In this document: positions 1-26,657 of the stretch, piece after piece | Layout of the letters: every line of letters starts with the position of its first letter | Position numbering within the stretch: position 1 is the stretch's first letter | Sequence record: MZ726792.1 | Reading direction: 5' to 3' (one strand) | Source: Escherichia phage vB_EcoM_ASO1B | DNA length: 64,000 bases | Translations under genes and position numbers: made by a program | The notes under the pieces: model-generated | What the model saw: the letters and a program-made list of their open reading frames with translations, nothing else | What the model was told of the DNA's origin: nothing | The model's database searches: none

Positions 1-2292
1 ATGACACCTGAGATGTTCAGCCTTTTGAGTTCTGGTGTATATACCTTTAAAGAAAGGGCAGTGATTCGTGAACTGTCATGTAACGCAGTAGATGCTCAGA
101 AAGAAGCTGGAAAAGAGAACATCCCATTCCATGTGCATTTACCTACTCGTTTTGAGCCTTACTTCGAAGTTCGTGATTTTGGAACTGGATTGACTCATGA
201 TAAAGTTATGAGTTTGTACCTAAACTATGGAGCTTCTACGAAGAATGACTCTAATGACTACATTGGTGCAATGGGTATCGGCTCAAAGTCACCATTTGCA
301 ATTGCTCAGTCATTCACAGTATCTAGCTATGTTGATGGTGTTGTTAATAAGTACTCTGTTTATCTTGAGAATGGTATCCCTCAAGTAACTAAGCTGACAA
401 CTAACCCAACAAAAGAACCTAATGGTTTAGCTGTACGTGTGGCGGTTGCTGACCACCGTATCTCAAAGTTCTTTGAAGAAGCTGGGAATGTGTACTCATA
501 CTTCACTGTAAAACCAGAAAGTAATATTGAGTACGACGATGTATTAGCAGATATGAACGTCATTGCCCGTGAAGAAGGTGTTTATGATGCCATGATTCAT
601 AAGCACAGCTGGCGTTCTAGTGATAACAGGACAGAGTTTAATGTGGTGATGGGTAACATTGCCTACCCTGTTAACATGGAAGCATTACTTGGTGATGATT
701 TCTTCAAAGTATTGCCAGAATTTTTCCGTAGGAGCGTAGACCTTGTAAACATCTACATGCCTATTGGTTCAGTCGCTATTGCAGCTTCTCGTGAAGCATT
801 GCAGATGAATGACACGACAAAAAATGTTATCATTGAGGCTACTAAAAAGATAACTGAAGCAATTACAAAGGATGTTATCAAGAAAGTTAACAGTCAACCT
901 ACACTCATGGATGCTGCACAGGCTTATGCTGAGTTACGTTTGAACTCACGAGAGATGTTTAATGCTGTGTGTCCAAAGTTAGAGTGGGGAGGCGTTAAGC
1001 TTGATTCTCTGGAAGAAGAATTACTAAACATTCGTCGTGGAATTATCTACGCAGAAGACGGCTCAGTCATTTATGAACGTGACGGTAAAGGTAATATTAA
1101 GGTTGATAGGAACGGAAACAACATCCCTAAAGTAGATTATCTTTATGACCCAGTTGCTTATGTCAAGTTCAACTCTTTAGAGAGTAAGATTCGTGCAACA
1201 GCACTTTCCTACACTCAAGAGGCAAGTATGTTCAATATCTTTGGCGCAATGCGTAAAAGCCAAATTGAACAGTTTTTGTTTGTTATAAATGACCGTCGCA
1301 ATAAAAATGGTACTGAGAAGACTGTAGGACGCAACCAAATCTTGCGTGGTGCATGTCGAGACTATGCCAGTGAGTCAAGTCTGTTTCACAGATACAATGG
1401 TATTGTGTTTGTATTCTCGACTGAAAAAGAGTTAGATGATTTAATCAATCTACATAAACTTGATAAAAGCTTGTTAAAGATTGTGAAAATGTCTGATAAG
1501 GAGCACCATTACCAGCGCAAAGAAGCTGTAAGGGGTGTTGTAAAACTCTGGAAAGCTGTTCCAGCAGAAGGTGTAGCTTCCTATAAAGAGGTTTCAGAGG
1601 ACTTTGATACAATTGAAGAACCTCAGCTTTACATTAAGGCAGTTGGTGACACAGTTGATGGCGAATGTTTTTGCTCATCTCCAGAAGATGTAGCCAAGTC
1701 AGTTGCTAATGTTACAGGGAAGACAGTCTATGTTTTCCGAAAAGCAAATTGGAAAAAGATACCAGAAGACTGGATTGAAGTAGATGAGAAACTCTTGAAC
1801 GACAGCTTAACTGATGTTCATTGGATTAATCATAACAGGTATATGACACGTATCTATATGAATGGTGTCCTTGACCTTACAAGCAGTTGGATTATTGCCA
1901 GAAACTTTACGTTCAATAACAGGAAGATTTCTCGTGGCTATTGCTATTCACGGGATACAAACAAAACTATCTTCCTAGAAGGAAATGAAGATGCTGTAGA
2001 GGCAATGTTCGGTAAAATCCAATACGTTGCTGCACCATTTGCATACACTTATACTATTAGTGTATTGAAAACTTTGAAAGACTGTCTTGACAATGATACA
2101 AAGCTTTACAAGAAAATTAAGAAAGCTGGTGACCGTATGGTCATTAAGGTGACAAACTACCTTTCAAAAAGAAAACAAGAAAACTTCTTGCTTTCTCATT
2201 TAGATTGGAATAAAGTGTCACCCATCGAAGTGAGTAAGTTCTTAGGTTTTGATGTGAAGTGTGTTCCAGAAGGAACTACAGTTTACGATTAA
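1..2292 (+). CDS. rIIA: rIIA-like protein with N-terminal GHKL-type ATPase motifs
   Basis: 763-aa ORF; N-terminal motifs ELSCNAVDA, EVRDFGTGL, GAMGIGSKS resemble GHKL ATPase boxes; lies directly upstream of an rIIB homolog; may start upstream of window. Confidence 0.75.
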   Translation: MTPEMFSLLSSGVYTFKERAVIRELSCNAVDAQKEAGKENIPFHVHLPTRFEPYFEVRDFGTGLTHDKVMSLYLNYGASTKNDSNDYIGAMGIGSKSPFAIAQSFTVSSYVDGVVNKYSVYLENGIPQVTKLTTNPTKEPNGLAVRVAVADHRISKFFEEAGNVYSYFTVKPESNIEYDDVLADMNVIAREEGVYDAMIHKHSWRSSDNRTEFNVVMGNIAYPVNMEALLGDDFFKVLPEFFRRSVDLVNIYMPIGSVAIAASREALQMNDTTKNVIIEATKKITEAITKDVIKKVNSQPTLMDAAQAYAELRLNSREMFNAVCPKLEWGGVKLDSLEEELLNIRRGIIYAEDGSVIYERDGKGNIKVDRNGNNIPKVDYLYDPVAYVKFNSLESKIRATALSYTQEASMFNIFGAMRKSQIEQFLFVINDRRNKNGTEKTVGRNQILRGACRDYASESSLFHRYNGIVFVFSTEKELDDLINLHKLDKSLLKIVKMSDKEHHYQRKEAVRGVVKLWKAVPAEGVASYKEVSEDFDTIEEPQLYIKAVGDTVDGECFCSSPEDVAKSVANVTGKTVYVFRKANWKKIPEDWIEVDEKLLNDSLTDVHWINHNRYMTRIYMNGVLDLTSSWIIARNFTFNNRKISRGYCYSRDTNKTIFLEGNEDAVEAMFGKIQYVAAPFAYTYTISVLKTLKDCLDNDTKLYKKIKKAGDRMVIKVTNYLSKRKQENFLLSHLDWNKVSPIEVSKFLGFDVKCVPEGTTVYD

Positions 2293-2371
2293 AGTGTTTG
2301 ACAAGGGGCTTCAAAGCCCCTTAGAATATCCTCACAAAATGATTTATTAACTAACAAGAGAGAGTAATAAG

Positions 2372-3481
2372 ATGACTACTAAAACTAAAGCACAGATTGA
2401 CGCAGAAATTTACAAACTGGTTAAAGAAGGTAAGCTGACTAAAACAGCTATTGCACAGAAATTTAATACTTCAACCCGTTCAGTCGGTCGTGCTGTAGAG
2501 CGTCATGAAGCAACCTTAAAAGGTAAGAAAAAGGTAGCTTCTAAACCAGCTACGAAGACTTTGAAGCAAGTTGCTAAGACCTTTAAAAAGAAAGCTGACA
2601 AGCCAGTTAAAAAGGTTGTTAAAGATTCTGTACAGAAAGCTCCAGTAAATAAACTGCACGAAGCTATGCAGAAAGATGACAAGATTGAGTACATGATTAC
2701 TGGCGACTCTGTAATTATGACTTACGGTTCAGAATCTGAAATTGTTGAGTCTACTCATCCGAACTATCAAGAGATTGTAGTTCATGTTGTGAAAGGTGAG
2801 TTCAAGAAAGCCTTTGAACTGATGAACATTCGTAAGTCTATCGAAAACTTCACGCAGGGAGCTATCACAATCAAAGGTGATAAGCTATTCTACGGTGCTG
2901 TTGAGATGCGTTCTACTCTGGTTGACCGTATACTTCACATGATGAAGACTGGTGATAAAGGTTTTGAACGACTTGTAATGTTCTTCGAAAAACTGATGGA
3001 AAACCCATCTAAAGATTCTGTAGAACAACTTTGGGGATTCATATCTCACCTTGATGTTGAAATTGATGAAGAAGGCTACATCATTGGTTGGAAGAAAGTC
3101 TCTACTCGTGAAGGCAAGCTGGTTGACTCCCGCACCTGCAAAGTACCTAATGATTTGGGTAACATTGTAGAAATGCCACGTTGGATGGTTGATAATAACC
3201 GTAACGTGACTTGCTCTCAAGGTCTTCACGTTGGTGCTTGGGATTATGTTCGTTACTTCTCAGGTGATACAATTCTGAAGGTTCGTGTCCATCCACGAGA
3301 CGTTGTATCCGTACCAACTGATTACAACGATATGAAGATGCGCTCGTCTCGTTATGAAGTTGCAGCAATCGTTGATAATCAACGTAAAGTACTGAAAGCA
3401 TGGGATGGCAAGACTGAAGCTTTGCATGTCATCGTTGGCACTGCTGGTGAACTTATCTCTCAGCGTAAACGTGAAATCTAA
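2372..3481 (+). CDS. rIIB: rIIB-like protein
   Basis: 369 aa; blocks recalled from T4 rIIB (EMRSTLVDRIL, NPSKDSVEQLW, CSQGLHV, VRVHPRDVVSVPTDYNDMKMR); ATG with purine-rich RBS. Confidence 0.85.
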   Translation: MTTKTKAQIDAEIYKLVKEGKLTKTAIAQKFNTSTRSVGRAVERHEATLKGKKKVASKPATKTLKQVAKTFKKKADKPVKKVVKDSVQKAPVNKLHEAMQKDDKIEYMITGDSVIMTYGSESEIVESTHPNYQEIVVHVVKGEFKKAFELMNIRKSIENFTQGAITIKGDKLFYGAVEMRSTLVDRILHMMKTGDKGFERLVMFFEKLMENPSKDSVEQLWGFISHLDVEIDEEGYIIGWKKVSTREGKLVDSRTCKVPNDLGNIVEMPRWMVDNNRNVTCSQGLHVGAWDYVRYFSGDTILKVRVHPRDVVSVPTDYNDMKMRSSRYEVAAIVDNQRKVLKAWDGKTEALHVIVGTAGELISQRKREI

Positions 3482-3582: not shown

Positions 3583-4131
3583 ATGAAGAAATTGATTCTA
3601 GGTTTGTGCTTAATGCTTACAGCACACTTATCTTATGCAGTTGACTGCCCAGAGCTATCAATTAGCCAAAAAGTAAACATGTTAAAAGCTTACCAGTATG
3701 GTGAGAACAACATGGGTAAAGGTTGGGGTATCACTCTAGCTGCTATAGCCTTACAAGAGTCAGAGTTAGGTCTGAAGGTAGAGAATAAAAAGACACATGA
3801 TTATGGTATTTTCCAGAATCACTTGAAGACTGTTGTAAAGCGTAACAAAATTAGTCCTAATGTGGCTAAAAAGAAACTCTTAAAAGACTTTAACTATGCT
3901 GCGAAGGAAACTCACAAAGAGCTTGAGTTTTGGACAAAGGTGCATGGTCAGCCAAAGTCAAAGAAGACTTTACAAAAAGTTTTAGCATCATATAATGCTG
4001 GGTATTCGTACAAAATCCCTAAAGCTAAGAAATATTCTCAAGATGTCTATAACAACATGAAAGTCATTGCTCAATGTGAATTTGCAACAAACATTTCTAA
4101 GGTAAACCATGAAAAAATTAAAAAAGTCTGA
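3583..4131 (+). CDS. secreted lytic transglycosylase (SLT-domain) protein
   Basis: N-terminal signal peptide MKKLILGLCLMLTAHLSYA; SLT-like motifs ALQESELG, GIFQ, YNAGY; RBS AGGAG. Confidence 0.55.
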   Translation: MKKLILGLCLMLTAHLSYAVDCPELSISQKVNMLKAYQYGENNMGKGWGITLAAIALQESELGLKVENKKTHDYGIFQNHLKTVVKRNKISPNVAKKKLLKDFNYAAKETHKELEFWTKVHGQPKSKKTLQKVLASYNAGYSYKIPKAKKYSQDVYNNMKVIAQCEFATNISKVNHEKIKKV

Positions 4132-4804
4132 TGAAGTGCTGTGTCATGCTTACGACTTACATCCTCATGAGTTAGGTCTTGATTCCTGTGTATGGACTCC
4201 AGAACAGTGTAGGGATTTTGAAGACACTGCAAGAGAAGTTGTATGTTCACTCGAAGAGTTCCACACATCAGAGCCAATTGTGAATGTTGTAGATAAAGAG
4301 ACTGGACAAACTATAGGTGTAAGTCGTGATAGCTTAGTCATAGTCAATAAAGACCTTGTAGAAAAAGGTAACCTCATCTTAGCAGATATTGATGGTGTTC
4401 TTACAAATTTTAATCACGAAGATTGCTCAACGGAATTGACTGATGGGTCATTCTCACAGTACACTAATCTTCTTGACTCTGTAAGAGCAAAACCAACGTA
4501 TGTCTTTAGTATTATTGATGCAATTGCTAATCATGCTGCCATTGGACTCTTGACAGCGAGAGGTGAATCTCAGAGAATACCTACTGAGATGTTTTTAAGG
4601 CACAATATAGAGCATGATTACTTGCTTTTTATGCGTGGTTTTGGAACTAACTCTATAAGTGTAGAAAGTTTGAAAGTGAGGATGATTCAGTCTTGCATCC
4701 TGCCTTACTTTAATATAGTATGTTTTATAGAAGACACAGAGAAGAATGTGCAGAAGGTGAACAGAATCCTTCCACACATTAAAACCATGTTAGTTAAACA
4801 TTGA
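4109..4804 (+). CDS. HAD-like hydrolase (putative phosphatase or nucleotidase)
   Basis: 231 aa; motif LILADIDGVLTNF fits HAD motif I (DxDG[TV]L); overlaps previous stop by 23 nt. Confidence 0.35.
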   Translation: MKKLKKSDEVLCHAYDLHPHELGLDSCVWTPEQCRDFEDTAREVVCSLEEFHTSEPIVNVVDKETGQTIGVSRDSLVIVNKDLVEKGNLILADIDGVLTNFNHEDCSTELTDGSFSQYTNLLDSVRAKPTYVFSIIDAIANHAAIGLLTARGESQRIPTEMFLRHNIEHDYLLFMRGFGTNSISVESLKVRMIQSCILPYFNIVCFIEDTEKNVQKVNRILPHIKTMLVKH

Positions 4805-4814
4805 GAGAAAACTT

Positions 4815-5279
4815 ATGAACAATATCATTACGGTAGCACTGGACGATACGGTAAACAAATCTGCAATAGTTCGTAAAATGATTCAAGGTAACTTTGAAGG
4901 TAAAATTTTTCGTGCTGTTAATGTAAAAGCTGATGGCAGCATTCGTGAATATCGTGCATTATTGAATGTTAAAAAACACGTAAAAGGTGCTGGTTCAACT
5001 ACTGCACACAAAGAAAACCTGATGACTATCTATGATATGGGCAAGGCTTCAGAGTTAGGTGCTGAAGGTATCGTTAAAGAAGGTGCTCCGTATCGCTCTT
5101 TCAATCTGGAAACTACTCTTATGCTTTCCTTTACAAGTGGTTCTAAAACAATCACTTATCTCTTTACTGATGCTGCAACGGTATCTGCTATTAAGGATAG
5201 CACTGTCAAAGCTGGCGTAGTTGCTGCTGCAAAAGCTTCTTCGATGGCTGCGAATATCCTTGCTAAAGTCCTCGGTTAA
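4815..5279 (+). CDS. hypothetical protein
   Basis: 154-aa ORF, ATG start, followed by strong terminator. Confidence 0.55.
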   Translation: MNNIITVALDDTVNKSAIVRKMIQGNFEGKIFRAVNVKADGSIREYRALLNVKKHVKGAGSTTAHKENLMTIYDMGKASELGAEGIVKEGAPYRSFNLETTLMLSFTSGSKTITYLFTDAATVSAIKDSTVKAGVVAAAKASSMAANILAKVLG

Positions 5280-5291
5280 GGTTAAGATACA

Positions 5292-5312
5292 GGCTCCTTC
5301 GGGAGCCTTTTT
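5292..5312 (+). terminator. rho-independent terminator
   Basis: GGCTCC-TTCG-GGAGCC hairpin followed by T-run. Confidence 0.7.
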
Positions 5313-5331
5313 CATTTTAGGAGATTGTTAA

Positions 5332-5679
5332 ATGACATTTAAAGAGTTCTGTCAAGCTACTTTCATAATTGTTTTCTTAGTTGGTGCAGGTGTCTGGGGA
5401 GGATACTCTTACAGAGACTATCAAGTTGCTGAAACTGAGCTAAATAATGAGAAACTAATAAGTGTTGCTAAAGATGCTTATCAGGAAGGTTTAGCCACAC
5501 TCAGCACCAATTACAAAAATGATTTGAAAGATGTGCTTGCTAAGAATAAGCATACAAAAGAGGTACTAACATATGAAAAAACTAAGCCAGAGTTTTATAA
5601 TGTTTGTGTTACTGATAACTATGTCAGGGTGTTCAACGAACAAAGTGAGCAGTACATTCAAAAACTCCCAAGTAAGTGA
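5332..5679 (+). CDS. putative i-spanin (N-terminal TM helix, periplasmic coiled-coil)
   Basis: 115 aa; hydrophobic FIIVFLVGAGVWGG near N-terminus then charged helical region; RBS AGGAG; overlapped by lipoprotein ORF in another frame. Confidence 0.4.
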   Translation: MTFKEFCQATFIIVFLVGAGVWGGYSYRDYQVAETELNNEKLISVAKDAYQEGLATLSTNYKNDLKDVLAKNKHTKEVLTYEKTKPEFYNVCVTDNYVRVFNEQSEQYIQKLPSK

Positions 5680-5842
5680 GGGTGATAAGTACACCCAAGA
5701 AGAATCACGGTATATCATCAAAGGCAACACAGGCAGCGATGTAGCAGCAGCCCTTGAGTTCTATCGTGACGGCTTTTACCAGTGCACAATCAAAGCTAAC
5801 AACCTTATTGACATGATTTTATTAGGGAATAAGCAGCAATGA
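5573..5842 (+). CDS. putative o-spanin lipoprotein (overlapped architecture)
   Basis: 89 aa; signal plus lipobox-like ITMSGC; starts inside 3' end of preceding ORF in +1 frame; RBS AAAGAGG. Confidence 0.4.
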   Translation: MKKLSQSFIMFVLLITMSGCSTNKVSSTFKNSQVSEGDKYTQEESRYIIKGNTGSDVAAALEFYRDGFYQCTIKANNLIDMILLGNKQQ

Positions 5843-6108
5843 CAGAGAATCAAGATACTTTTTACGTAGAAGGGTACTTACTGTTACCACGACCAAAAGA
5901 GACTTATATGCGAATTGATTTCTCACCAACCATTATGGATAATGTGATGTGCCATATCTTTATGCAAGGTGTCACAGCACAGCTTAAACATGTTGGTAAA
6001 GAGTGCAAAATAAAGGTTGACACTCATCCAGAAATCAAAGAGAATCACTACACATGGTTCTTACCAGATTCTAAAGAAATCTTAGCAGTTCTTAAAACGA
6101 GGAAGTAG
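5839..6108 (+). CDS. hypothetical protein
   Basis: 89-aa ORF, ATG overlapping upstream stop (translational coupling). Confidence 0.5.
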   Translation: MTENQDTFYVEGYLLLPRPKETYMRIDFSPTIMDNVMCHIFMQGVTAQLKHVGKECKIKVDTHPEIKENHYTWFLPDSKEILAVLKTRK

Positions 6109-6110
6109 CT

Positions 6111-6437
6111 ATGCAGATTAATGGAAGAGACTTTGTAGCCGTTTACTATGATAACAATAAAGAAGTTGGTGTAGCACAGGTAACCTATGGCAATGGTAAG
6201 TGGCTATATGGAACAATCGCAGTAGTAGGAACAAGAAGTGATACAAAAACTTTTAAAGATTGTGTTGACCTTCTTGAAGAATCCATCCACAATCATTGGT
6301 GTCTGATATGGATGACTGATAACGAAGTGATGGAGCGTTTCAAAAAGATTGATATCAACATTGACAGTATTGAGCATGTTGATTTATATGAACTAACTGA
6401 GAAGGTAAACTATGAAAGTAATACTAGCCAGAGATAA
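6111..6437 (+). CDS. hypothetical protein
   Basis: 108-aa ORF, tightly packed after previous gene. Confidence 0.5.
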   Translation: MQINGRDFVAVYYDNNKEVGVAQVTYGNGKWLYGTIAVVGTRSDTKTFKDCVDLLEESIHNHWCLIWMTDNEVMERFKKIDINIDSIEHVDLYELTEKVNYESNTSQR

Positions 6438-6639
6438 AAAGACACGAAAACTTATAAGGTCAGCAGTATTCATTGGACGAAATGAGGTCATCCCATTTAC
6501 AGCAAATGATGTGATAGCTTACAGGAAGAACTTAGTATTCACTGACTGCTTACGTGGCTTCATCTCTGAACCATTGGAAGACTTTAAAAGTCGTTGTGGT
6601 AAAGGTATCATCATTCAAGAGGCAATTATTCATGGCTGA
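6412..6639 (+). CDS. hypothetical protein
   Basis: 75-aa ORF overlapping neighbours. Confidence 0.45.
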   Translation: MKVILARDKKTRKLIRSAVFIGRNEVIPFTANDVIAYRKNLVFTDCLRGFISEPLEDFKSRCGKGIIIQEAIIHG

Positions 6640-6832
6640 CTTCTGTAAAGACTGTTCTATCGAAATGTTCGGACGTGATACAGGTGACTTAAAAGGTCTT
6701 ATCACTGAAGATGATTTTAAAGCTGGTTATGCAATGCCAGTAATCTGTGAAGGTTGTGGGTGCATCTGGGTAGACCATGAGGGGCAACGTGTAAAACCTT
6801 CAGAAGATAAAGAATCTTGGGAGAGATGCTAA
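6632..6832 (+). CDS. small Cys-rich (zinc-ribbon-like) protein
   Basis: CKDCS...CEGCGC pattern; ORF track begins at 6554 but ATG at 6632 abuts upstream stop. Confidence 0.45.
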   Translation: MADFCKDCSIEMFGRDTGDLKGLITEDDFKAGYAMPVICEGCGCIWVDHEGQRVKPSEDKESWERC

Positions 6833-7618
6833 ATGGGTATTGTAAAAATCATCAATGGTGATATCTTTGCTGCATTTGATAAAGGTAAGTTTGACATCAT
6901 TGGTCATGGTTGTAACTGCATGAACCTAATGGGCGCAGGTATCGCTGACAAGATTTCTAAACTTTACCCAAAAGCATATGAGACCGATACAGAAGTTTAT
7001 CTCTATGCAGGTGGTATAGGTCACAAACCCTGTGAGAATTTACTAGGTAATTTCTCTGTAGCACGCTTAAAACAAGGTCGTATAGCTAACCTTTACACTC
7101 AGCTTAAGACTGGTAAAGATGCCCGATACAGTGCTTTAGAGTCATCTTTGAAGCAACTTAACAGATACTGTGAAGTTAATCAGTTGAAGAAAGTTGGTTT
7201 ACCTATGATTGGTGCAGGTATCGGTGAACTTGACCCTCAAGCCGTCACAGTTATCATCAATCAGGTGATGAAGAGTGTAGATGTTTATCTATATGTCTAT
7301 GAAGGAGAGATGTACCACAAGTTACTCTCAGGTTGGAAGAACTACTGTGAACCAGAATACTTTGCAGGTGTAGCAGTGTTCACAGATAACGCAGTTACCC
7401 TCTTCAGACGAAGAAAAGGTAAGATACATCAAAGTAACCCTCCGGTTGAAAAGATGTCTCTAAGTAACGCTCTAGTTACCCACCTGTCAAAGAGCAATCA
7501 CAGAATTGCTGTAACATTTGGTAGTGATGCAGAAGCTTATATCTATGCAAGAACTGATGAGGATATTGAGGCAATCTTCTCTTCACCAGAAGTTACCTTC
7601 TTAGACGCAAAGAACTAA
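6833..7618 (+). CDS. macro-domain protein (putative ADP-ribose processing enzyme)
   Basis: 261 aa; N-terminal GDIF...DIIGHGCNCMNLMGAGIA and later GLPMIGAGIGELDP resemble macro-domain glycine-rich boxes. Confidence 0.55.
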   Translation: MGIVKIINGDIFAAFDKGKFDIIGHGCNCMNLMGAGIADKISKLYPKAYETDTEVYLYAGGIGHKPCENLLGNFSVARLKQGRIANLYTQLKTGKDARYSALESSLKQLNRYCEVNQLKKVGLPMIGAGIGELDPQAVTVIINQVMKSVDVYLYVYEGEMYHKLLSGWKNYCEPEYFAGVAVFTDNAVTLFRRRKGKIHQSNPPVEKMSLSNALVTHLSKSNHRIAVTFGSDAEAYIYARTDEDIEAIFSSPEVTFLDAKN

Positions 7619-7686
7619 GAAACTCTGTAGGATATTCACAATAGCCTAAGCCTTTCTTATCTGGTAAATTTTTCAGGTAAGGAGGG

Positions 7687-7873
7687 CTTTTTCATTTCAG
7701 ATTTGTGCAGGTAGAGTTCTGTAGAGAAATCTATAGAGAAAATTTTGAACTCCAAAGAGAAAATTCATTTTCAAACTGTGCAGGTAATCTCCAAAGAGCT
7801 TTTTCATTTTCAAAACGTGCAGACCCCGCTCAGGTCGGGCAAGAAAAATCATTTTAGAATTGTGCAGGTAGGT
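7687..7873. repeat. four direct repeats of ~25 bp (TTTCATTTyCArAwyTGTGCAGGTA)
   Basis: copies near 7687, 7765, 7798, 7848 in a non-coding stretch. Confidence 0.7.
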
Positions 7874-7885
7874 TTTTATAGACAG

Positions 7886-7927
7886 CCAGCCCAACCCCTC
7901 TCCCCCTCTTACTCCCCCTCTCCCAAA
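7886..7927. repeat. C-rich tract (G-rich on minus strand, G-quadruplex-capable)
   Basis: CCAGCCCAACCCCTCTCCCCCTCTTACTCCCCCTCTCCC in an AT-rich genome. Confidence 0.6.
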
Positions 7928-8046
7928 AAGTCAAGAGAAAAATTTGTAGCGGATTGAAAAATAATTCTTGATTTGCGTTCTGTTTTGTGGTAGTCGTGCG
8001 CACCCGTTTCATTACAGTTTTGCCAAAAATATTTTTAAAATTTTTA

Positions 8047-8138
8047 TTGACTCTTTGAACGTGGTTATCTAATATTTACATCAACGGGGAGGGAATGACC
8101 TTCCCCACTAAATAAAATCCTAAACTGGAGATTCAAAA
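8047..8138 (+). promoter_or_regulatory. PeSL-like cassette: sigma70-like promoter (TTGACT-17-TAATAT) + 5' leader hairpin + SD
   Basis: -35 8047-8052, -10 8070-8075; hairpin GGGGAGGG-AATGA-CCTTCCCC 8086-8106; SD GGAG before ATG 8139. Confidence 0.65.
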
Positions 8139-8327
8139 ATGGCATCAAGAAAAATTAAAGTTGGCGATGAGGTTAACATTAAGCACGAATACTCTTACAA
8201 AATGCTAACTATACGCTCTTATAAGGTTTATCAGGTGGAAGCTATCCACAAAGATAATACTTTTTCCTTAAAAGGGTATAGCGAACGTTTCCCTGCTGAA
8301 CTCTTTGAGAAATGGAGCGCGAAATAA
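8139..8327 (+). CDS. hypothetical small protein
   Basis: 62-aa ORF immediately after PeSL-like cassette. Confidence 0.5.
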   Translation: MASRKIKVGDEVNIKHEYSYKMLTIRSYKVYQVEAIHKDNTFSLKGYSERFPAELFEKWSAK

Positions 8328-8533
8328 TGCTTTACAGTCGTGAATTGATGGTTACAACTAACGTTAACACAAAGGTAAAACGTTTTTACATGCAAATTTG
8401 TGGCGTATGGTCTAGAATATCAGAAGCTGACTATTGCAACTATGTAGAAACAGCTATAAACTCTAATTGCTACCTTACAAGAAATACTAAGAATTTTACA
8501 AGGCAAACAGCGATTTACTATTACGATAAATAA
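8312..8533 (+). CDS. hypothetical small protein
   Basis: 73-aa ORF overlapping previous stop; alternative start at internal Met possible. Confidence 0.4.
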   Translation: MEREIMLYSRELMVTTNVNTKVKRFYMQICGVWSRISEADYCNYVETAINSNCYLTRNTKNFTRQTAIYYYDK

Positions 8534-8620
8534 AAGTACTTTACAAGGGGCTTATAGTTCGATAAAGTAAGCCTCAGATAAAGAGCTTTACCACTCAATC
8601 CTAAATTGGAGAACTTAAAA
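8531..8620 (+). promoter_or_regulatory. type-II intergenic cassette (CTTTACA + conserved hairpin + AGATAAAGAGCTTTAC + SD)
   Basis: hairpin GGGGCTTA...TAAGCCTC 8547-8575; one of six related copies. Confidence 0.6.
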
Positions 8621-8914
8621 ATGGCTATTATCAAAAACGTTGTAATTACTGCAAAGACTCGTGATGACGCTCGCGTTATGGCTAAAAAGTTATGCGGGAA
8701 AGTGGTTGACAATGGAAAACAATCTGCTGTAAGGTGGGGCGTGAAGGTTGATAAACAGTTGAAGTTAAAAAATTCACCGATAAACCTTTTTACATGTGTA
8801 AACACTATCGGGAAGACAAATGTATACACGAAAAAGGCATACATTAGACGCGTAGCATTAACATCCCCCATTCGTACAATGAGAAGTTATGCAAAGCTGA
8901 AAATTAACAAATAA
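8621..8914 (+). CDS. hypothetical protein
   Basis: ORF-track start 8606 is TTG; ATG at 8621 has SD TGGAG. Confidence 0.5.
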   Translation: MAIIKNVVITAKTRDDARVMAKKLCGKVVDNGKQSAVRWGVKVDKQLKLKNSPINLFTCVNTIGKTNVYTKKAYIRRVALTSPIRTMRSYAKLKINK

Positions 8915-8999
8915 AGTACTTTACAGGGGGCTTAAAAGCTGATACCTTAAGCCCCAGATAAAGAGCTTTACCACTAAATCCTAAACTGGAGATTCAAAA
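8913..8999 (+). promoter_or_regulatory. type-II intergenic cassette
   Basis: hairpin GGGGGCTTAA...TTAAGCCCC 8926-8955 with covarying stem; SD before ATG 9000. Confidence 0.6.
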
Positions 9000-9512
9000 A
9001 TGAAAACTGTAGACGCTACCTTTGAAGTTGTAAAAGAAAAATTCACTATTATTTATGAAGCTGTCAATTGCTTTGAAGCAAGCCATAATCTTGATAATTG
9101 GGAATTTACAGATGACCATCAAGGCGGTGTGACGATTAAAAATCCTAACTGTCAGCGTAATGAATTTAAATATGCAATCCCTTTACATTACAGCCTTAAA
9201 CAGCTTTCAAGTGACTATGCAAAACAAGGCCGGGCAAATCCATCAAAAGAGGCTTACATCAGCTTACAGAAAGAACTAGAAAGAGATTTAGAGGCTTCAG
9301 AATATAACATTGCCGCGAAAGTTGTAGATGCAAATGGCAGCACTGTTTTAGAAAGTTTTTATATTGGTTACGCTTTCGATTGGTGCTACAGTGACGGCGA
9401 TGATTTAGAGGATAGACTAAAAGAAGAGGTGAACAACGCAGACGCAGAATCTGAAGTATTAGAACGTTTGGAATCGTTGAAAGACTCAGTGATGAATATC
9501 TTTAAGAACTAA
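9000..9512 (+). CDS. hypothetical protein
   Basis: 170-aa ORF after type-II cassette. Confidence 0.55.
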   Translation: MKTVDATFEVVKEKFTIIYEAVNCFEASHNLDNWEFTDDHQGGVTIKNPNCQRNEFKYAIPLHYSLKQLSSDYAKQGRANPSKEAYISLQKELERDLEASEYNIAAKVVDANGSTVLESFYIGYAFDWCYSDGDDLEDRLKEEVNNADAESEVLERLESLKDSVMNIFKN

Positions 9513-9604
9513 ATAGATTCCTTTACACGGGGTTATCAAGCTGGTAGGATAGCCCCAGATAAAGAGATTTATCAAATAAAGCCCTTAAACTAGGAGATTC
9601 TAAA
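9513..9604 (+). promoter_or_regulatory. type-II intergenic cassette (divergent copy)
   Basis: hairpin GGGGTTATC...GATAGCCCC 9529-9556; SD AGGAG. Confidence 0.5.
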
Positions 9605-9901
9605 ATGAAATTATCAAATAAAGTTAGGGAAAACCTTAGTAAATTACTCAATAAAATTGATTTTATCGAGACATCAAGAAATAGTCATGATGTTATGGAA
9701 TGGTTACATGGCAAAATAAAAGGCCGTCGTGTAGTAATTTGCTTATGGAATAGTTGCAGGGAGTATAAAAAACCTGTATTGCAAGTTAATATATACGATG
9801 ATACTTTTAAAAGTCCTGTAAAGTCTAAAAGCGATTTATTAGAATCTTATGAGATATCTGTAAGTGGCAAAGTATCACGTAAAGAGGAAACACCATGTTA
9901 A
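9605..9901 (+). CDS. hypothetical protein
   Basis: 98-aa ORF. Confidence 0.5.
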   Translation: MKLSNKVRENLSKLLNKIDFIETSRNSHDVMEWLHGKIKGRRVVICLWNSCREYKKPVLQVNIYDDTFKSPVKSKSDLLESYEISVSGKVSRKEETPC

Positions 9902-10227
9902 TGACTGGTATCACTGCAATCATTGCCATTTTCGCTCTATATAAGGCATATAAAGCCTATAATCTAGCAAATAAGGCAACCACCCAGCAGGTTAGCAATA
10001 GCCTTGTAGAAAGCTTTCTAGGGCGTTTAAGTGATGAGCAAATAAAGCGGCTAGAGATGAGCTTCAGATATAAAGCGAAAACCTATCAGATAAGTGACAT
10101 CTTCAAAGATAATTTTCAGTTAGTTGATGATTATAATTCTCTGATAAATGCTTTAAATGTCAGTGACTTAAAAGACTACTACGTTGTAATTGTTCAAGAA
10201 TTGAGCAAACGAAAACAAAACTGTTGA
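9895..10227 (+). CDS. hypothetical small membrane protein
   Basis: 110 aa; hydrophobic N-terminus ITAIIAIFALY; start overlaps previous stop. Confidence 0.5.
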   Translation: MLMTGITAIIAIFALYKAYKAYNLANKATTQQVSNSLVESFLGRLSDEQIKRLEMSFRYKAKTYQISDIFKDNFQLVDDYNSLINALNVSDLKDYYVVIVQELSKRKQNC

Positions 10228-10316
10228 CACTGGTTTTTAGATAGATTAAATTACACATCAACGGGGAGGGAATGACCTTCCCCACTAAATAAAGTCCTAA
10301 ACTGGAGATTCTGAAA
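10224..10316 (+). promoter_or_regulatory. PeSL-like cassette (TTGACA-17-TAAATT + hairpin + SD)
   Basis: -35 10224-10229, -10 10247-10252, hairpin 10263-10283. Confidence 0.65.
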
Positions 10317-10475
10317 ATGTTTTGTGCAGGTGATAAAGTTGTCTGGAATGATATAGATGACGGTTTATGTACGAAAGTTGTTGTTATCCTAGAAATTGAT
10401 TATATCACTGGTGTTGCAACTGTAGCAGATAATGATATAATCTTTGATGTCTTAATTAGTGAACTGTCAAAATAA
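10317..10475 (+). CDS. hypothetical small protein (52 aa, absent from >=60-aa ORF track)
   Basis: ATG 7 nt after SD of PeSL cassette; in-frame stop TAA at 10473. Confidence 0.4.
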   Translation: MFCAGDKVVWNDIDDGLCTKVVVILEIDYITGVATVADNDIIFDVLISELSK

Positions 10476-10500
10476 AACCCTTAAACTAGGAGCTTTTAAA

Positions 10501-10773
10501 ATGTACACTACTAACAATGGTCGCACCTTAAATGTCACCTTGCGTCACTATGTAGACGGTGTGATGTGCTTTGAAGATTTACGGGCTGAGCAACACATCT
10601 TAAATTGGCAAGTTGCAGGACTCCAAAAAACTGCTACAGGATACGGGAAAAAGATTCCAACCAGTTGGAAAGTATACTACGAAGGACGTTTACGCAGAAT
10701 TTATCAAGATGTGCAAAGAAATAGCGCATCGAGTTACATTATAGTAAAAGGCAAAAAACTGCATTTAATGTAA
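10501..10773 (+). CDS. hypothetical protein
   Basis: ORF-track start 10459 is GTG; ATG 10501 has SD AGGAG. Confidence 0.5.
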   Translation: MYTTNNGRTLNVTLRHYVDGVMCFEDLRAEQHILNWQVAGLQKTATGYGKKIPTSWKVYYEGRLRRIYQDVQRNSASSYIIVKGKKLHLM

Positions 10774-10859
10774 AGTACTTTACAAGGGGCTTATAGTTCG
10801 ATAAAGTAAGCCCCAGATAAAGAGCTTTACTACTCAATCCTAAATTGGAGAACTTAAAA
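10774..10859 (+). promoter_or_regulatory. type-II intergenic cassette
   Basis: hairpin 10786-10814, near-identical to copy at 8547. Confidence 0.6.
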
Positions 10860-11264
10860 ATGGCTATTAATAACCGTGAATTATCAATTTTAAAAGCACG
10901 TTTGACCGTTAACCGGATTAATGTTATCACGTCATCAGCACCAGATGAAACACTGCAAAACATTATTGGGAAGATTCAAAGTGTTATCTTAGACGTTGAA
11001 AGCGTAAAAAACTCATTGACTGACGTTGCAGCAGGTATCACGCTAGACGGTGCACAACATGAAATGGCCGACATGTTAGGCAAATCTAAGGTAATGAATA
11101 AAGAGTTAGATTTGAAAATGTTCCGATTTGCTGTTAAAGTGTGGTTATCTGTCGAGTATGATGCTAACTTTGCAATCGCTGACTTTTTCGCCACTTGGTT
11201 GCAGCGTAATTTGGCAAATCACGATTTCCGTAATATCTGCGATGCAATTTATGCAGAACTATAA
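10860..11264 (+). CDS. hypothetical protein
   Basis: ORF-track start 10845 is TTG; ATG 10860 with SD. Confidence 0.5.
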   Translation: MAINNRELSILKARLTVNRINVITSSAPDETLQNIIGKIQSVILDVESVKNSLTDVAAGITLDGAQHEMADMLGKSKVMNKELDLKMFRFAVKVWLSVEYDANFAIADFFATWLQRNLANHDFRNICDAIYAEL

Positions 11265-11274
11265 AAAATTTTTG

Positions 11275-11367
11275 TTGACACTGGTTTTTAGATAGATTAA
11301 ATTACACATCAACGGGGAGGGAATGACCTTCCCCACTAAATAAAGTCCTAAACTGGAGATTCTGAAA
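11275..11367 (+). promoter_or_regulatory. PeSL-like cassette
   Basis: -35 TTGACA 11275-11280, -10 TAAATT 11298-11303, hairpin 11314-11334; near-identical to 10224 copy. Confidence 0.65.
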
Positions 11368-11571
11368 ATGGCTATTATTAATGGTTTAACCATTGAAACT
11401 ACACACATCAAAGATATCAAAGTTGGTGATATAGTCCTTTCCCACGGCGTAGAAAAAACTGTCACTGCAAAGGATATCAAAGAGGATTCTTTCATGGGTA
11501 GGACTCTCTTCGGTGATTCTTATTGCTTAGGCTATCTTGCAGTTTTAAAAGTTGTCAAAAATAACAAATAA
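11368..11571 (+). CDS. hypothetical small protein
   Basis: 67-aa ORF after PeSL cassette. Confidence 0.5.
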   Translation: MAIINGLTIETTHIKDIKVGDIVLSHGVEKTVTAKDIKEDSFMGRTLFGDSYCLGYLAVLKVVKNNK

Positions 11572-11657
11572 AGTACTTTACAAGGGGCTTAAAAGTTGAT
11601 AACTTAAGCCTCAGATAAAGAGCTTTACTACTAAATCCTAAACTGGAGATTCTAAAA
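11571..11657 (+). promoter_or_regulatory. type-II intergenic cassette
   Basis: hairpin GGGGCTTAA...TTAAGCCTC 11584-11612. Confidence 0.6.
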
Positions 11658-11906
11658 ATGATGAACTACTTTAACATTCCCGATACCTGTAGATTATTGA
11701 CACAAGAAGAAAATTTGGGTAAACCTTTCATTTACCACATGCCAGATAACACGGCAAAAACTTATAGTTACAATGTTAACCGTTTCACCGCATACGCTGC
11801 AAAGAACGGCTATAGGTTGGTTACTCAAAAAGTAATGCTGGTTACAACTGCTGGCGAGATTCCTACAGTTGCAGTCAAACTAGTTTTCTCAAAGAAAGTT
11901 AAATAA
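11658..11906 (+). CDS. hypothetical protein
   Basis: 82-aa ORF. Confidence 0.5.
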   Translation: MMNYFNIPDTCRLLTQEENLGKPFIYHMPDNTAKTYSYNVNRFTAYAAKNGYRLVTQKVMLVTTAGEIPTVAVKLVFSKKVK

Positions 11907-11991
11907 AGCACTTTACAAGGGGCTTATAGTTCGATAAAGTAAGCCCCAGATAAAGAGCTTTACTACTCAATCCTAAACTGGAGATTCAAAA
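11907..11991 (+). promoter_or_regulatory. type-II intergenic cassette
   Basis: hairpin 11929-11947 region; SD before ATG 11992. Confidence 0.6.
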
Positions 11992-12534
11992 ATGAAATGT
12001 TATCACGGAACTACTCAAGAAAATTTCCTCAACCTGATTAATAACGGTGATAAACCATCAGGCGCATGGAATTGTTCGGATATGGACGGCAATTTTTACG
12101 TGTATCCAGAAAATAAAATCTATGGCGACGATGATGAAGAGATAACATCGGAGGGCATTCAGCAAGCTCTAGGGAACGCCACTATTACGGCGGCCTTCCA
12201 GATGAAAACCCAAAATATTGTTATCTTAGAACTCGATATTCCAGATGATGAGCTAAATGATGATTATTCTTGTGATAATATGTCGAGTGTAGCAAGTTTT
12301 ACAGAGTACTTTGATGTAAACTGGATTAAAAAGGTCTATACAACAGAGTTTAACGCTATGTATTCGCCTTTTTGTCTTCCTTCACTGGATAACCCAAATA
12401 TGAACTATCTTGATGAGACATTAGAACTACTTGCTAAAAGTGTTCAACAGTCGGACAGTATTCAGGTTTTTTGTGACATCATAGATACACTGACAGGAAA
12501 CATTGCAGAAGAGGATTTAAAGAGCTTTTTCTAA
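11992..12534 (+). CDS. hypothetical acidic protein
   Basis: 180-aa ORF. Confidence 0.55.
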   Translation: MKCYHGTTQENFLNLINNGDKPSGAWNCSDMDGNFYVYPENKIYGDDDEEITSEGIQQALGNATITAAFQMKTQNIVILELDIPDDELNDDYSCDNMSSVASFTEYFDVNWIKKVYTTEFNAMYSPFCLPSLDNPNMNYLDETLELLAKSVQQSDSIQVFCDIIDTLTGNIAEEDLKSFF

Positions 12535-12601: not shown

Positions 12602-12835
12602 ATGCTTACAACCGTTTATCTCATCCTCTCAATTTGTAATGGCCATTCATGTGACTTTAAAGGGCTTGAAGAGTTTACAGGAAGTAAAGAAAATGCTATT
12701 CAAGTTTGCCAGATAGCAAGGCAAGACTATCCCGCCAGTGATGATATACAATGTTACTTTAAGACAGAAGATGACGACGGAATTTATTTCGACAGTGTTG
12801 ACGGTCAATATGAAATTATCATTGAAAAAGACTAG
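12602..12835 (+). CDS. hypothetical small protein
   Basis: 77-aa ORF. Confidence 0.45.
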   Translation: MLTTVYLILSICNGHSCDFKGLEEFTGSKENAIQVCQIARQDYPASDDIQCYFKTEDDDGIYFDSVDGQYEIIIEKD

Positions 12836-12927
12836 ACAAGCCTGATAAAAGTCTGTAAATTGTCAATCAACGGGGAGGGAATGACCTTCCCCACTAAGTA
12901 AAGTCCTTAAACTAGGAGATTCTAAAA
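12833..12927 (+). promoter_or_regulatory. PeSL-like cassette (-10 TAAATT + hairpin + SD)
   Basis: -10 12856-12861; hairpin 12872-12892; SD AGGAG. Confidence 0.55.
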
Positions 12928-13269
12928 ATGGCTTATGTAACCATAATTACCGATAAAGCTGGCGCATCTTGGTCAACTCAGGTTAGTGATAAGATGTCAC
13001 CTATGCAGTGCCTAAAATACTTTGAACAGTGGAACAAAGGCGAGGACACAAGCCCCTTTCAAGTGATGCAGATTATCCATGTAGACAACGAAGGGAATAA
13101 AACGACCTTGAACAGTGAATACTACGCAAGCCGTTTTGAAACGAGAAGTAAAACAATGAAGCTTTTACGTGAATCCGGTTATGCCCATATCGCCGCGTTA
13201 ATCTGGGATGACCTGCTAAAAAGTCAGCGTATTAGCTATGTAAAGCCTGAAAAAATATTCATCAGTTAA
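12928..13269 (+). CDS. hypothetical protein
   Basis: 113-aa ORF. Confidence 0.55.
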   Translation: MAYVTIITDKAGASWSTQVSDKMSPMQCLKYFEQWNKGEDTSPFQVMQIIHVDNEGNKTTLNSEYYASRFETRSKTMKLLRESGYAHIAALIWDDLLKSQRISYVKPEKIFIS

Positions 13270-13330: not shown

Positions 13331-13421
13331 TGTTCGAGGGGGTTTATCTAAAAGGGATTCACTTAAAAGATTCTTTATAGATAAGCTCAAAAAATTACTT
13401 GCAATCAACTATCAAAACAAG

Positions 13422-13489
13422 TAAATTACTAATCAACGGGAAGGCAATAACCTCCCCACTAAATAAAGTCCTAAACTGGAGATTCTAAA
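13422..13489 (+). promoter_or_regulatory. PeSL-like cassette with covarying hairpin
   Basis: -10 TAAATT 13422-13427; hairpin GGGAAGG-CAATAA-CCTCCCC 13438-13457. Confidence 0.55.
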
Positions 13490-14020
13490 ATGAACAAATT
13501 TCAAGCTATCAACTTCATTCGTTCAAATACTGTAATGTCTAAGCCTGTAAAAGATACATACGAATTCCGTTGTAATGGGGTACATTTCGCAACAATCACC
13601 AAATCAGAAAACGGGACTTATTACGTTCATCGTCGTAATGTTTACACTGTTGTAGTCTCTCACTTTATGCAAGCTGTAGCGGAATTATTACCGTTATTCT
13701 TAGAGATTTACTTAGATGAGTGTAAAAACGTTCACAACCACGTTAAAAACCTTTTAAACGGTTATAAAATGGCTTATGAACGTTCTATCAAGTCCTTAAA
13801 CAAGTTCTATAAAGCCCCTGAAAACTCTGTTGCTTCAGCCTATGGCGTAGGCGGTTGGACTGTTAGTCTCTTCGAAGTGGAAGAAATCGAGCTTTACGAC
13901 CATCGACCTAACGGTTACTCTAAGACTCTCGGTGAAGGTTTAACGTTCAATATCAAGAACTTAGAAAAAACTTTAAAAGATATTGAAAAAGATATTGACG
14001 AGACAATAAAAAGTCTGTAA
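13490..14020 (+). CDS. hypothetical protein
   Basis: 176-aa ORF. Confidence 0.55.
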   Translation: MNKFQAINFIRSNTVMSKPVKDTYEFRCNGVHFATITKSENGTYYVHRRNVYTVVVSHFMQAVAELLPLFLEIYLDECKNVHNHVKNLLNGYKMAYERSIKSLNKFYKAPENSVASAYGVGGWTVSLFEVEEIELYDHRPNGYSKTLGEGLTFNIKNLEKTLKDIEKDIDETIKSL

Positions 14021-14086
14021 ATTGTCAATCAACGGGGAGGGAATGACCTTCCCCACTAAATAAAGTCCTAAACTGGAGTTATCAAG
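13995..14086 (+). promoter_or_regulatory. PeSL-like cassette (TTGACG-17-TAAATT + hairpin)
   Basis: -35 13995-14000, -10 14018-14023, hairpin 14034-14054; promoter lies in 3' end of upstream gene. Confidence 0.55.
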
Positions 14087-14350
14087 ATGGAAAACGTAGA
14101 ATTAACCACACTTTTACAAATTGCAACTGACAAAGAAGATGTAGCACTGTTTCACCGTATCGAAAGCGATTTATTCAATGGTGAAATCATCAAAGAATCT
14201 TATGAAGTTGTCGGATTCAAAGATGGTAAAGCGTTTGGCTTTTTTGACCTCGACAAAGGCAACGCTGTCACAAAGTATGATGTTGTATCTTGTGAGATTC
14301 TTACAAAATACAACGAAAAAAGGCTTGCAACATACGCCAATATACAGTAA
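14087..14350 (+). CDS. hypothetical protein
   Basis: 87-aa ORF. Confidence 0.5.
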   Translation: MENVELTTLLQIATDKEDVALFHRIESDLFNGEIIKESYEVVGFKDGKAFGFFDLDKGNAVTKYDVVSCEILTKYNEKRLATYANIQ

Positions 14351-14416
14351 ATTACTAATCAACGGGAGGCGATAACCTCCCCACTAAATAAAACCCTTAA
14401 ACTAGGAGATTCAAAA
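14348..14416 (+). promoter_or_regulatory. PeSL-like cassette with covarying hairpin
   Basis: -10 TAAATT 14348-14353; hairpin GGGAGG-CGATAA-CCTCCC 14364-14381. Confidence 0.55.
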
Positions 14417-24454: not shown

Positions 24455-24826
24455 ATGAAAAACAGAACAAACAAAGGCCAGTTTAAAAAAGGCCAATCTG
24501 GAAACCCATCTGGAAGACCAAAAGGCTCTCGCAACAAAAGCTCACTTGTAAAAGCTCAACTGACCATTGATAATTCTGCTGAGTTTGCTGCAAAGTTGTT
24601 TGAGGCGATTGTTACAAGGGACGCTGCTAAGCTTGCAGAGTTCGGGTTAAACACAGATGATGTAACCATCAAGAGTATGATTGAGGTCGGTAAAACTATC
24701 TTTACTCACTCAGCAGGTGAGATGAAAGCACTTGCAGCAGACACTAAGAAGACTCCTGATAATGGTGGTCAACCACAGACAGATAACAAACCAACGTTCT
24801 CTGCTGTAGCGACTCTTAAAAAATAA
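24455..24826 (+). CDS. hypothetical protein with basic N-terminus (GNPSGRPKGSRNK)
   Basis: 123-aa ORF. Confidence 0.5.
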   Translation: MKNRTNKGQFKKGQSGNPSGRPKGSRNKSSLVKAQLTIDNSAEFAAKLFEAIVTRDAAKLAEFGLNTDDVTIKSMIEVGKTIFTHSAGEMKALAADTKKTPDNGGQPQTDNKPTFSAVATLKK

Positions 24827-24907
24827 TTTTAAAAGGTGTTGACAGACTCTATAAAGTTGCTCTAAAGTCTGTCACATCAAACAACAAATGAGAGAAGAGA
24901 GTAAAAT

Positions 24908-26323: not shown

Positions 26324-26341
26324 AAAGTTTTAAAAAGGGTA

Positions 26342-26370
26342 TTGACAATGTGTTTGATACCCTTTAATAT
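26342..26370 (+). promoter_or_regulatory. sigma70-like promoter (TTGACA-17-TAATAT) ahead of tRNA array
   Basis: -35 26342-26347, -10 26365-26370; a second TTGACA at ~26432. Confidence 0.55.
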
Positions 26371-26488
26371 GTTCTACATAGAAACGAAACGAGAGCTTTT
26401 CTAAGATACTGAAAAATATTTTAAAAAAGTTCTTGACAATCACTAAAAAATAATGTTAAAGTGGTTACATAGAGTTTGAAAAGTTTAT

Positions 26489-26565: not shown

Positions 26566-26572
26566 AATTAAT

Positions 26573-26650: not shown

Positions 26651-26657
26651 GTTTTGA

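Follow-up and report, generated by a model that had tools for sequence, protein, structure and literature searches.

The locus considered here raises the question of what a phage does with a macro domain that is fused to a second domain matching only its own family, and whether, as an earlier note had proposed from the DNA, the protein serves as counter-defense against ADP-ribosylating host systems. The window, a 64,000-nucleotide stretch of Escherichia phage vB_EcoM_ASO1B (MZ726792.1), is nearly identical over its whole length to MZ726791.1 (Escherichia phage vB_EcoM_ASO1A; Ounavirinae, Felixounavirus), with coordinates unshifted. The gene was confirmed in the ORF list at 6833..7618 on the plus strand, as are the domains, motifs and signals given coordinates below, with an ATG start and 261 codons plus stop. 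It is 99.9% identical to the same coordinates in MZ726791.1, where the counterpart, ASO1A_011, is labeled 'hypothetical protein'; labels in sister genomes are 'phosphatase', 'macro domain protein' and 'O-acetyl-ADP-ribose deacetylase'. Approximately 200 phage records carry the gene at 90% nucleotide identity or above, Felix O1 ORF13 (Felix01p025) is the ortholog (97% amino acid identity), and the match to PHROG_335 spans the full 261-amino acid protein (E = 6e-112). The start at 6833 is well supported, since the TAA stop of the upstream ORF (6830-6832) abuts the ATG and a Shine-Dalgarno sequence, GGGAGAG (6819..6825), was read directly 7 nt before it; the abutting stop and start suggest translational coupling within an operon. 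A Rho-independent terminator 3′ of the gene (7648..7699; 17-bp stem and T-run), found in a terminator scan and annotated in MZ726791.1, closes the transcription unit; its hairpin, a strong one, spans 7648-7689. An Rfam search of 5000-11500 returned nothing beyond one sub-threshold chance match.

The earlier note had described the gene as early and next to rII. Genes rIIA and rIIB occupy 1-3481, and between the end of rIIB and the macro gene downstream of it there are 3.35 kb with about nine annotated ORFs, with a T4 Vs.1 homolog, a PNK/HAD-phosphatase-like protein (4109-4804) and spanins among the intervening genes. 'Next to' is therefore loose as a statement of distance, but the relative position is conserved: in a distant metagenomic relative, with a macro part 39% identical, the order rIIA, rIIB, HAD-like gene, macro gene is kept. 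Early expression, a guess from position, is borne out in the 97%-identical Felix O1 ORF13, which is among the genes with maximal expression at 5 min post infection by RT-PCR (PMC3185647, Table 3). The neighbors of the macro gene are small phage ORFs and, by annotation, none in the window is an ART; no KptA/Tpt1 or 2H enzyme was found among the window annotations.

The macro domain comprises amino acids 1–157 (6833..7303) and was assigned with confidence, from profiles and models, to the ALC1-like class of TARG1, DarG and SCO6735, subtype 'TQ'. Pfam PF01661 matched amino acids 25–141 over positions 2–117 of its 118, the 30.3 bits (E = 4.5e-7) exceeding the cut-off of 22, and a search of PDB sequences using a family profile built from 17 two-domain homologs returned TARG1 (1e-11), Mtb DarG (4e-8) and Taq DarG (7e-7). 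The AlphaFold2 model of the 261-amino acid protein (pLDDT 85.4, pTM 0.85) contains the three-layer alpha/beta/alpha macro fold, with TM(target) up to 0.81. Comparison with the PDB using Foldseek gave 230 matches at E ≤ 1e-3, and the best 50 of these consisted entirely of macrodomain structures and Macro-family proteins (TTHA0132); TARG1 reached TM(target) 0.79–0.81 and DarG 0.73–0.74 (probability 1.0). TARG1 and DarG lead both the profile and the fold searches, in the latter among the matches listed. A macro fold, which the earlier note had wanted checked by profile or structure prediction, was thus recovered by Pfam, the PDB profile, AlphaFold2 and Foldseek alike, and its division of the protein into approximately 170 and 90 amino acids was close: in the model, the macro domain is followed by a linker (7304..7351) consisting of a helix at amino acids 158–167 and a short coil, and then by a C-terminal domain at amino acids ~174–250 (7352..7582). 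Within Felixounavirus the dN/dS of the macro part is 0.03, and this domain is under very strong purifying selection.

The motif H25-G-C-N28-C (6905..6919) is invariant in family alignments. Its correspondence to SCO6735 and DarG was established through a bridging alignment of a Kineococcus sequence (actinobacterial, TQ-type) to 5E3B, 5M3I and 5M31, in which H-G-C-N aligns with H24-V-C-N27 of SCO6735 and with ..N22 of DarG. N28 corresponds to DarG N22, PhiKZ AdfM N23 and SCO6735 N27, and H25 to SCO6735 H24; the Kolesnikvirus EAP4 protein has Q in place of H25. Glycine-rich loop 1, M33-G-A-G-I-A38 (6929..6946), consists of invariant columns, is spaced from N28 as in other macro domains by sequence reading, and is predicted to bind the phosphate/ribose of ADP-ribose. 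Glycine-rich loop 2, P124-M-I-G-A-G-I-G131 (7202..7225), is the predicted diphosphate-binding loop, with P124, G127, A128, G129 and I130 invariant. The glycine-rich boxes from which the macro domain had originally been recognized therefore stand, as M33-G-A-G36 and G127-A-G129-I-G131, and the G34-A-G36 and G127-A-G129-I-G131 cores are invariant or nearly so across the family.

The motif N86-L-Y-T-Q90 (7088..7102) was placed using HMMER alignments to TARG1 and the bridging alignment, in which N-L-x-T-Q aligns with N-F-P-T-K80 of DarG and N-M-I-G-Q85 of SCO6735. Q90 sits where the catalytic lysine of DarG (K80) and TARG1 (K84) and the essential Gln85 of SCO6735 sit; the hhalign register against PhiKZ AdfM was one residue off (L91 instead of Q90), with lysine in neither register. 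No equivalent of the catalytic lysine, and no conserved lysine nearby, was found in the HMMER, hhalign or bridging alignments. Q90 is invariant in 17 of 17 two-domain members, in T4 Tk.4 and in 16 of 16 more distant members ('TQ'). The site is of the Gln-type (SCO6735-like), having Gln at the lysine position together with Asn (N28), both invariant, and H25, N28 and Q90, as read from the alignments, reproduce the catalytic constellation of SCO6735. In SCO6735 itself, N27S and Q85A abolish hydrolysis of dT-ADPr-DNA, and the enzyme protects cells against DarT (PMC9411070). Because SCO6735 works without the lysine, and because N28 and Q90 do not vary here, the possibility that loss of the lysine had left a dead enzyme was rejected. 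A mechanistic link between AdfM-type proteins and SCO6735 was not found stated in the literature cited here.

Among phage proteins, T4 Tk.4 matched at 34% identity over amino acids 3–157 (BLASTP; 155 residues, E = 1e-24), a homology already implied when Felix O1 was first annotated ('protein in tk-vs intergenic region'). Transposon sequencing singled out tk.4 as the one T4 gene with a conditional requirement on a DarTG2 host, and a clean tk.4 knockout sensitized T4 to DarTG2, for which the gene was named adfM (HIDEN-SEQ preprint 2025; bioRxiv 10.1101/2025.11.20.689424). PhiKZ gp104 (AdfM), a macrodomain closer to DarG, was shown in vitro to clear DNA of the ADP-ribose added by DarT2, and it gives jumbo phages protection (Morgan et al., Cell Rep 2026; PMC13309987); it is distant from the window protein (BLASTP 8e-4; hhalign probability 88%). 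Among macrodomains, it is TARG1, DarG and SCO6735 that act robustly on thymidine-linked ADPr (PMC12879935). By homology the gene falls into the recently defined AdfM kind, which is by now a known one.

By analogy with these proteins, the function is probably, on a modest balance of the evidence, the removal of DarT2-type ADP-ribose from thymidine of phage DNA through a Gln-type (SCO6735-like) site, by a protein expressed early. The product would be an early two-domain accessory protein whose macro domain binds ADP-ribose and is most likely an ADP-ribosyl glycohydrolase. Its action would free thymidines of single-stranded phage DNA from the ADP-ribose placed there by DarT2-type toxins (DarTG2), so that phage replication could proceed, which would make it the Ounavirinae counterpart of T4 AdfM (Tk.4). 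Catalysis would be independent of lysine, in the mode of SCO6735: N28 would lock Q90, Q90 would position the distal ribose, and an activated water would do the chemistry. We infer all of the hydrolase activity, the thymidine-ADPr-DNA substrate and the protection against DarTG2.

This function is favored by the homology to Tk.4 and the phenotype of the tk.4 knockout, by DarG being the best match in defense libraries and TARG1 and DarG the best solved relatives, by the match of H25..N28..T89-Q90 to SCO6735 H24..N27..Q85 and its invariance across the family, by the 5-min expression maximum of Felix O1 ORF13, by the fact that PhiKZ AdfM, a more distant macrodomain, is a proven remover of T-ADPr, by the macro domain dN/dS of 0.03, and by the dispensability on laboratory hosts of a probable Bas63 ortholog, as expected for a conditional anti-defense gene. 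That ortholog is Bas63 gene 95, 'putative phosphatase', very probably the same gene by its position ten genes after rIIA/B (g84/85); in PhageMaP its fitness was ~0.6–1.1 (values below 0 denote essential genes) across laboratory strains and a 33-system defense panel. DarTG is not mentioned in the Bas63 33-system panel, and gene 95 is not mentioned in the PhageMaP main text. These data fit a conditional accessory gene for which the relevant condition lies outside the panel. The counter-defense role originally proposed thus gains support, by analogy, from the precedents of T4 Tk.4 and PhiKZ gp104 and from the invariance of N28 and Q90.

Several points count against this function. For T4 the evidence is solely genetic and taken from a preprint, and identity to Tk.4 is just 34%; the canonical catalytic lysine of DarG/TARG1 is absent, and the 44 bits scored with NCBIfam DarG fall far short of its cut-off of 250; the cellular TQ-type relatives have no DarT neighbor, and the ancestral substrate may differ; the N-terminal similarity to Poa1p is real, and in Kolesnikvirus EAP4 H25 is replaced by Q. 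Phage macro domains have also been argued to target mainly small ADPr-derived signals or toxins (Iyer, Burroughs, Aravind; PMC9503650).

The relation to DarG was examined in defense-system libraries and bacterial genomes. In the libraries the sole match was DarG, for the macro part only (PADLOC 2.6e-12; NCBIfam antitoxin_DarG 1.3e-11), and the DarG equivalog NF048014 scored 44.3 bits against its cut-off of 250, with profile positions 4–150 of 338 matched. No counterpart of the C-terminal DarT-binding domain of DarG was found with the PADLOC and NCBIfam DarG profiles, which stop before amino acids 160–261, and the C-terminal fragment searched alone gave no match. Scanning bacteria at one genome for each species yielded 72 loci with relatives at ~30–38% identity, nearly all of them stand-alone proteins of ~150 amino acids with the signature HGCNC...N[AL]YTQ...IGAG; no DarT-like or other conserved neighbor was found beside these relatives, and their contexts were lineage-specific housekeeping genes. 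Membership in DarG having failed on score, C-terminal domain and darT neighbor, the phage family is placed by its sequence in a broad orphan 'TQ-type' branch and is no captured DarG antitoxin. Among phages, and in many bacteria, the Gln-type may be the prevailing form.

Yeast Poa1p (ADP-ribose-1′′-phosphate phosphatase) aligned over profile positions 1–61 (E = 3e-5), and the legacy labels 'phosphatase' and 'A1pp' stem from this similarity in the N-terminal motif region. The 61-residue match supports an alternative in which the protein processes small-molecule derivatives of ADP-ribose, namely ADP-ribose-1′′-phosphate (Poa1p-type; an RNA-repair by-product or a toxic RES/ART product), O-acetyl-ADP-ribose, or ADPr immune signals such as those of Thoeris; the PNK/HAD-phosphatase-like gene 2 kb upstream and the cellular relatives lacking a DarT partner point the same way. 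We regard this as unlikely, since the match to Poa1p covers the N-terminal third only whereas the alignments with TARG1 and DarG are full-length and better scoring, since T4 Tk.4, alone among the homologs in having a phenotype, is needed specifically against DarTG2, and since neither KptA/Tpt1 nor a 2H enzyme is among the window annotations.

Similar considerations apply to the choice of macromolecular target. The class is promiscuous, TARG1 and SCO6735 also de-modifying proteins (PMC9411070), and an RNA-targeting ART defense, CmdTAC, occurs in E. coli (PMC11618068), so a counter-defense hydrolase might instead act on ADP-ribosylated RNA (for example CmdTAC-type mRNA modification) or on proteins modified by a host ART, or might control a phage-encoded ART. 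But the closest characterized relatives all act on thymidine-linked ADPr in DNA, no reported data connect Tk.4-like proteins with RNA or with protein as a substrate, and the window annotations include no ART, which makes such a target decidedly improbable. That the protein is mainly a non-catalytic binder, which sequesters ADP-ribose-containing molecules or inhibits an ADP-ribosyltransferase such as DarT2 directly, possibly through its C-terminal domain, is very improbable. In its favor, the catalytic lysine is missing, DarG, TARG1 and above all SCO6735 continue to inhibit DarT through interaction even when catalytically dead (PMC9411070), bacterial DarG has a separate toxin-binding C-terminal domain, and the C-terminal domain here is fast-evolving and unrecognizable in Kolesnikvirus; against it, the N28/Q90 pair, needed for catalysis in SCO6735, is invariant, the macro domain is under very strong purifying selection, and the C-terminal domain has no similarity to the C-terminal region of DarG.

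Removal of DarT2-type ADP-ribose as the favored function of the macro domain leaves the role of the C-terminal domain to be considered. In the models this domain consists of six beta-strands and a terminal helix, and it gave the same confident fold when modeled alone (pLDDT 78.9). Across the two-domain family, P174 and G179 do not vary and Y236 hardly does. Exhaustive searching brought up no recognizable relatives of this extension. No match to it was found in Pfam, PADLOC or NCBIfam, the viral structure library returned only its own family, and an exhaustive hmmsearch of 1.84 billion representatives returned only the same macro-fusion proteins, two of the matches (P0076 and P0084) being truncated ORF calls of the two-domain family. 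Long multi-stretch matches in this search were PQQ-type beta-propeller repeats and were rejected, the resemblance being limited to a beta-hairpin motif. A word-index search with the C-terminal 105 amino acids gave zero matches, its own family included, the tool being apparently insensitive to short queries. By tblastn, the domain is confined to Ounavirinae among sequenced phages.

Between genera, identity in the C-terminal domain is 46–58%, against 76–81% in the macro domain, and to distant members it is 13–22% against 39–52%; within Felixounavirus, dN/dS is 0.22 against 0.03. Purifying selection acts on the C-terminal domain too, which is genuine and constrained, though the constraint is looser or shifts. 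Charge is not conserved within the family (pI 4.6–9.6), so that a fixed nucleic-acid-binding surface is disfavored, and a basic DNA-binding module was rejected as unsupported. In Kolesnikvirus, a sister genus, the tail of the protein has no detectable similarity to the domain (hhalign probability 0.1%). Fusion or fission involving a separate downstream ORF in Kolesnikvirus was rejected, the protein there also being ~260 amino acids, with an unrelated tail. The domain is possibly an accessory module for targeting or partner binding. A bolder and rather doubtful idea, drawn by analogy, is that it acts as a second, non-enzymatic neutralization module that binds DarT2 or another host defense or replication factor, and so resembles by convergence the part of DarG that binds the toxin, its C-terminal domain, in which case the whole protein would be a complete two-mode 'antitoxin mimic'. 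This idea would explain the ~8-fold higher dN/dS, the variable charge and the unrecognizable counterpart in Kolesnikvirus, the last of these then stemming from an arms race with variable host targets, and the domain would then also be a new protein fold. The C-terminal appendage is the only part of the protein that could prove new.

Felix O1-like phages are widely used for typing of Salmonella and E. coli, for biocontrol and in therapy. If confirmed, the proposed function would extend AdfM-type counter-defense from T-even and jumbo phages to Ounavirinae, and would help to predict which DarTG2 strains Felix O1-like phages still infect. The analysis also joins two literatures, in that T4 AdfM and its relatives share a lysine-free, Gln-type site so far characterized only in SCO6735; from this link comes the mechanistic prediction that N28 and Q90 would be essential. 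For asking what else such enzymes need in vivo, the C-terminal domain offers a target that is small and well delimited.

Compared with known systems, the window protein differs from Poa1p in that the alignment is limited to the first third. Human TARG1/OARD1, which removes thymidine-linked ADPr, ranks first among solved structures by sequence (1e-11) and, among the matches listed, by fold (TM 0.8), but it is a eukaryotic, single-domain protein with a Lys84/Asp125 dyad where the window protein has Q90 and G131. Bacterial DarG shares the macro fold (TM 0.73–0.74) and the same presumed substrate; unlike the window protein it has Lys80 and a C-terminal DarT-binding domain of ~190 amino acids, and its gene adjoins darT. 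PhiKZ gp104 is, like the window protein, a phage macrodomain of the DarG-like class that keeps the catalytic Asn (N23, equivalent to N28), but it has a DarG-type lysine (K78), is expressed late, is imported into the phage nucleus and consists of a single domain of 162 amino acids. SCO6735 (Streptomyces coelicolor, PDB 5E3B) is ALC1-like, has Gln in place of the catalytic lysine together with the H..N pair, and is encoded by an orphan gene with no adjacent DarT, as is the window protein; it differs in being a cellular housekeeping or stress protein whose mobile loop is longer and which lacks a C-terminal domain, and its sequence matches the phage family profile only weakly (E = 0.17). For T4 Tk.4 a DarTG2 phenotype is on record (genetic, from the preprint), whereas the role of the window protein is one that we infer; Tk.4 is a single domain of 155 amino acids, to which the window protein adds ~95 amino acids at the C terminus. 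The two share the HGCNC...NLYTQ...IGAGIG signature with Gln at the position of the catalytic lysine, and both are encoded by stand-alone phage genes that lack a toxin partner and lie in a non-essential region of small ORFs.

The non-coding region directly 3′ of the macro gene (7619-7873) contains a terminator and four direct repeats, at 7692, 7765, 7804 and 7849, with the approximate consensus TCATTTYMRRAnnGTGCAG(GTA). The motif occurs in the equivalent place, 3′ of the macro gene, in Felix O1, CL1, allfine, TP15 and SEP1, and the 64-kb window contains no further copies of TCATTTYMRRAnnGTGCAG outside 7619-7873. When the near-identical phage ASO1A was compared with the Suspvirus SUSP2, the repeat-bearing non-coding region was 90% identical, whereas the neighbouring macro gene was only 74% identical. 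An Rfam search with the repeat region (7619-7873) returned no match and the RNA folding of this region was unremarkable (z = +0.55); the repeats look like an element that acts at the DNA level, such as iterons or regulator sites. The array is directly followed by a C/T-rich tract (7874-7928; cccaacccctctccccctcttactccccctctccc), which is also present in Felix O1 and SUSP2, whereas allfine and SEP1 have unrelated sequence in its place.

An unannotated 260-aa ortholog of the macro protein is encoded by the Kolesnikvirus Erwinia phage vB_EamM-EAP4 (1498-2280 of the retrieved locus, L088). Its residue at the position of H25 is Q rather than H (AQGCNC), and no similarity to the Felix-type tail was detectable in its ~100-aa C-terminal tail. 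Stand-alone macrodomain proteins of ~150 aa and of the TQ type, with Gln at the position of the DarG/TARG1 catalytic Lys, are widespread in the bacterial contigs (L006-L077), with the signature HGCNC...NAYTQ...IGAGLAGGDW, in Rhodobacteraceae, Hyphomicrobiaceae, Planctomycetes, Nitrospirales, Kingella and others. The genes of this family, which is apparently uncharacterised so far, have housekeeping surroundings on these contigs, where no DarT partner was found.

Upstream in the early region, Felix O1 annotation gives the ORF at 3583-4131 as a T4 Vs.1 homolog ("protein in vs-regB intergenic region") and the one at 4109-4804 as a "polynucleotide kinase"; the syntenic counterpart of the latter in a distant metagenomic relative gave weak Pfam matches to HAD_PNKP and LNS2. 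From this annotation and the homology of the macro protein to Tk.4, homologs of both tk.4 and vs.1 are placed in the Felix early region. In the T4 genome, tk.4 and vs.1 are close to one another. The ORFs at 5332-5679 and 5573-5842, annotated in other genomes as i-spanin and o-spanin (Rz-like) genes, lie between terminators and apparently share a transcription unit with the early macro gene, an odd arrangement for lysis genes. RT-PCR in Felix O1 assigned ORF6 to 25 min and ORF13, the macro gene ortholog, to 5 min (PMC3185647), and this difference in timing implies internal promoters.

Just upstream of the tRNA array (26246-31397) is ASO1A_045 (24665-26080), a hypothetical protein of 471 aa. Its position corresponds to that of g130 in phage Bas63, which is encoded directly upstream of the tRNA genes and which the PhageMaP study reported to be Ro60-like and to act against the Ppl defence system.

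Intergenic cassettes of ~98 nt recur in the window in two families, the first at 8045-8142, 10222-10319, 11273-11370, 12831-12928, 13396-13493, 13993-14090 and 14346-14403, and the second at 8533-8630, 8913-9010, 10772-10869, 11570-11667 and 11905-12002. The macro gene is immediately upstream of the first cassette. Each cassette combines a GC-rich hairpin with a promoter-like box of the TTGAC type and a conserved RBS (CTAAACTGGAGA), and is directly followed on its 3′ side by a small ORF. We take the cassettes to be similar to the promoter-early/stem-loop (PeSL) elements, which are mobile regulatory cassettes in T4-type phages.
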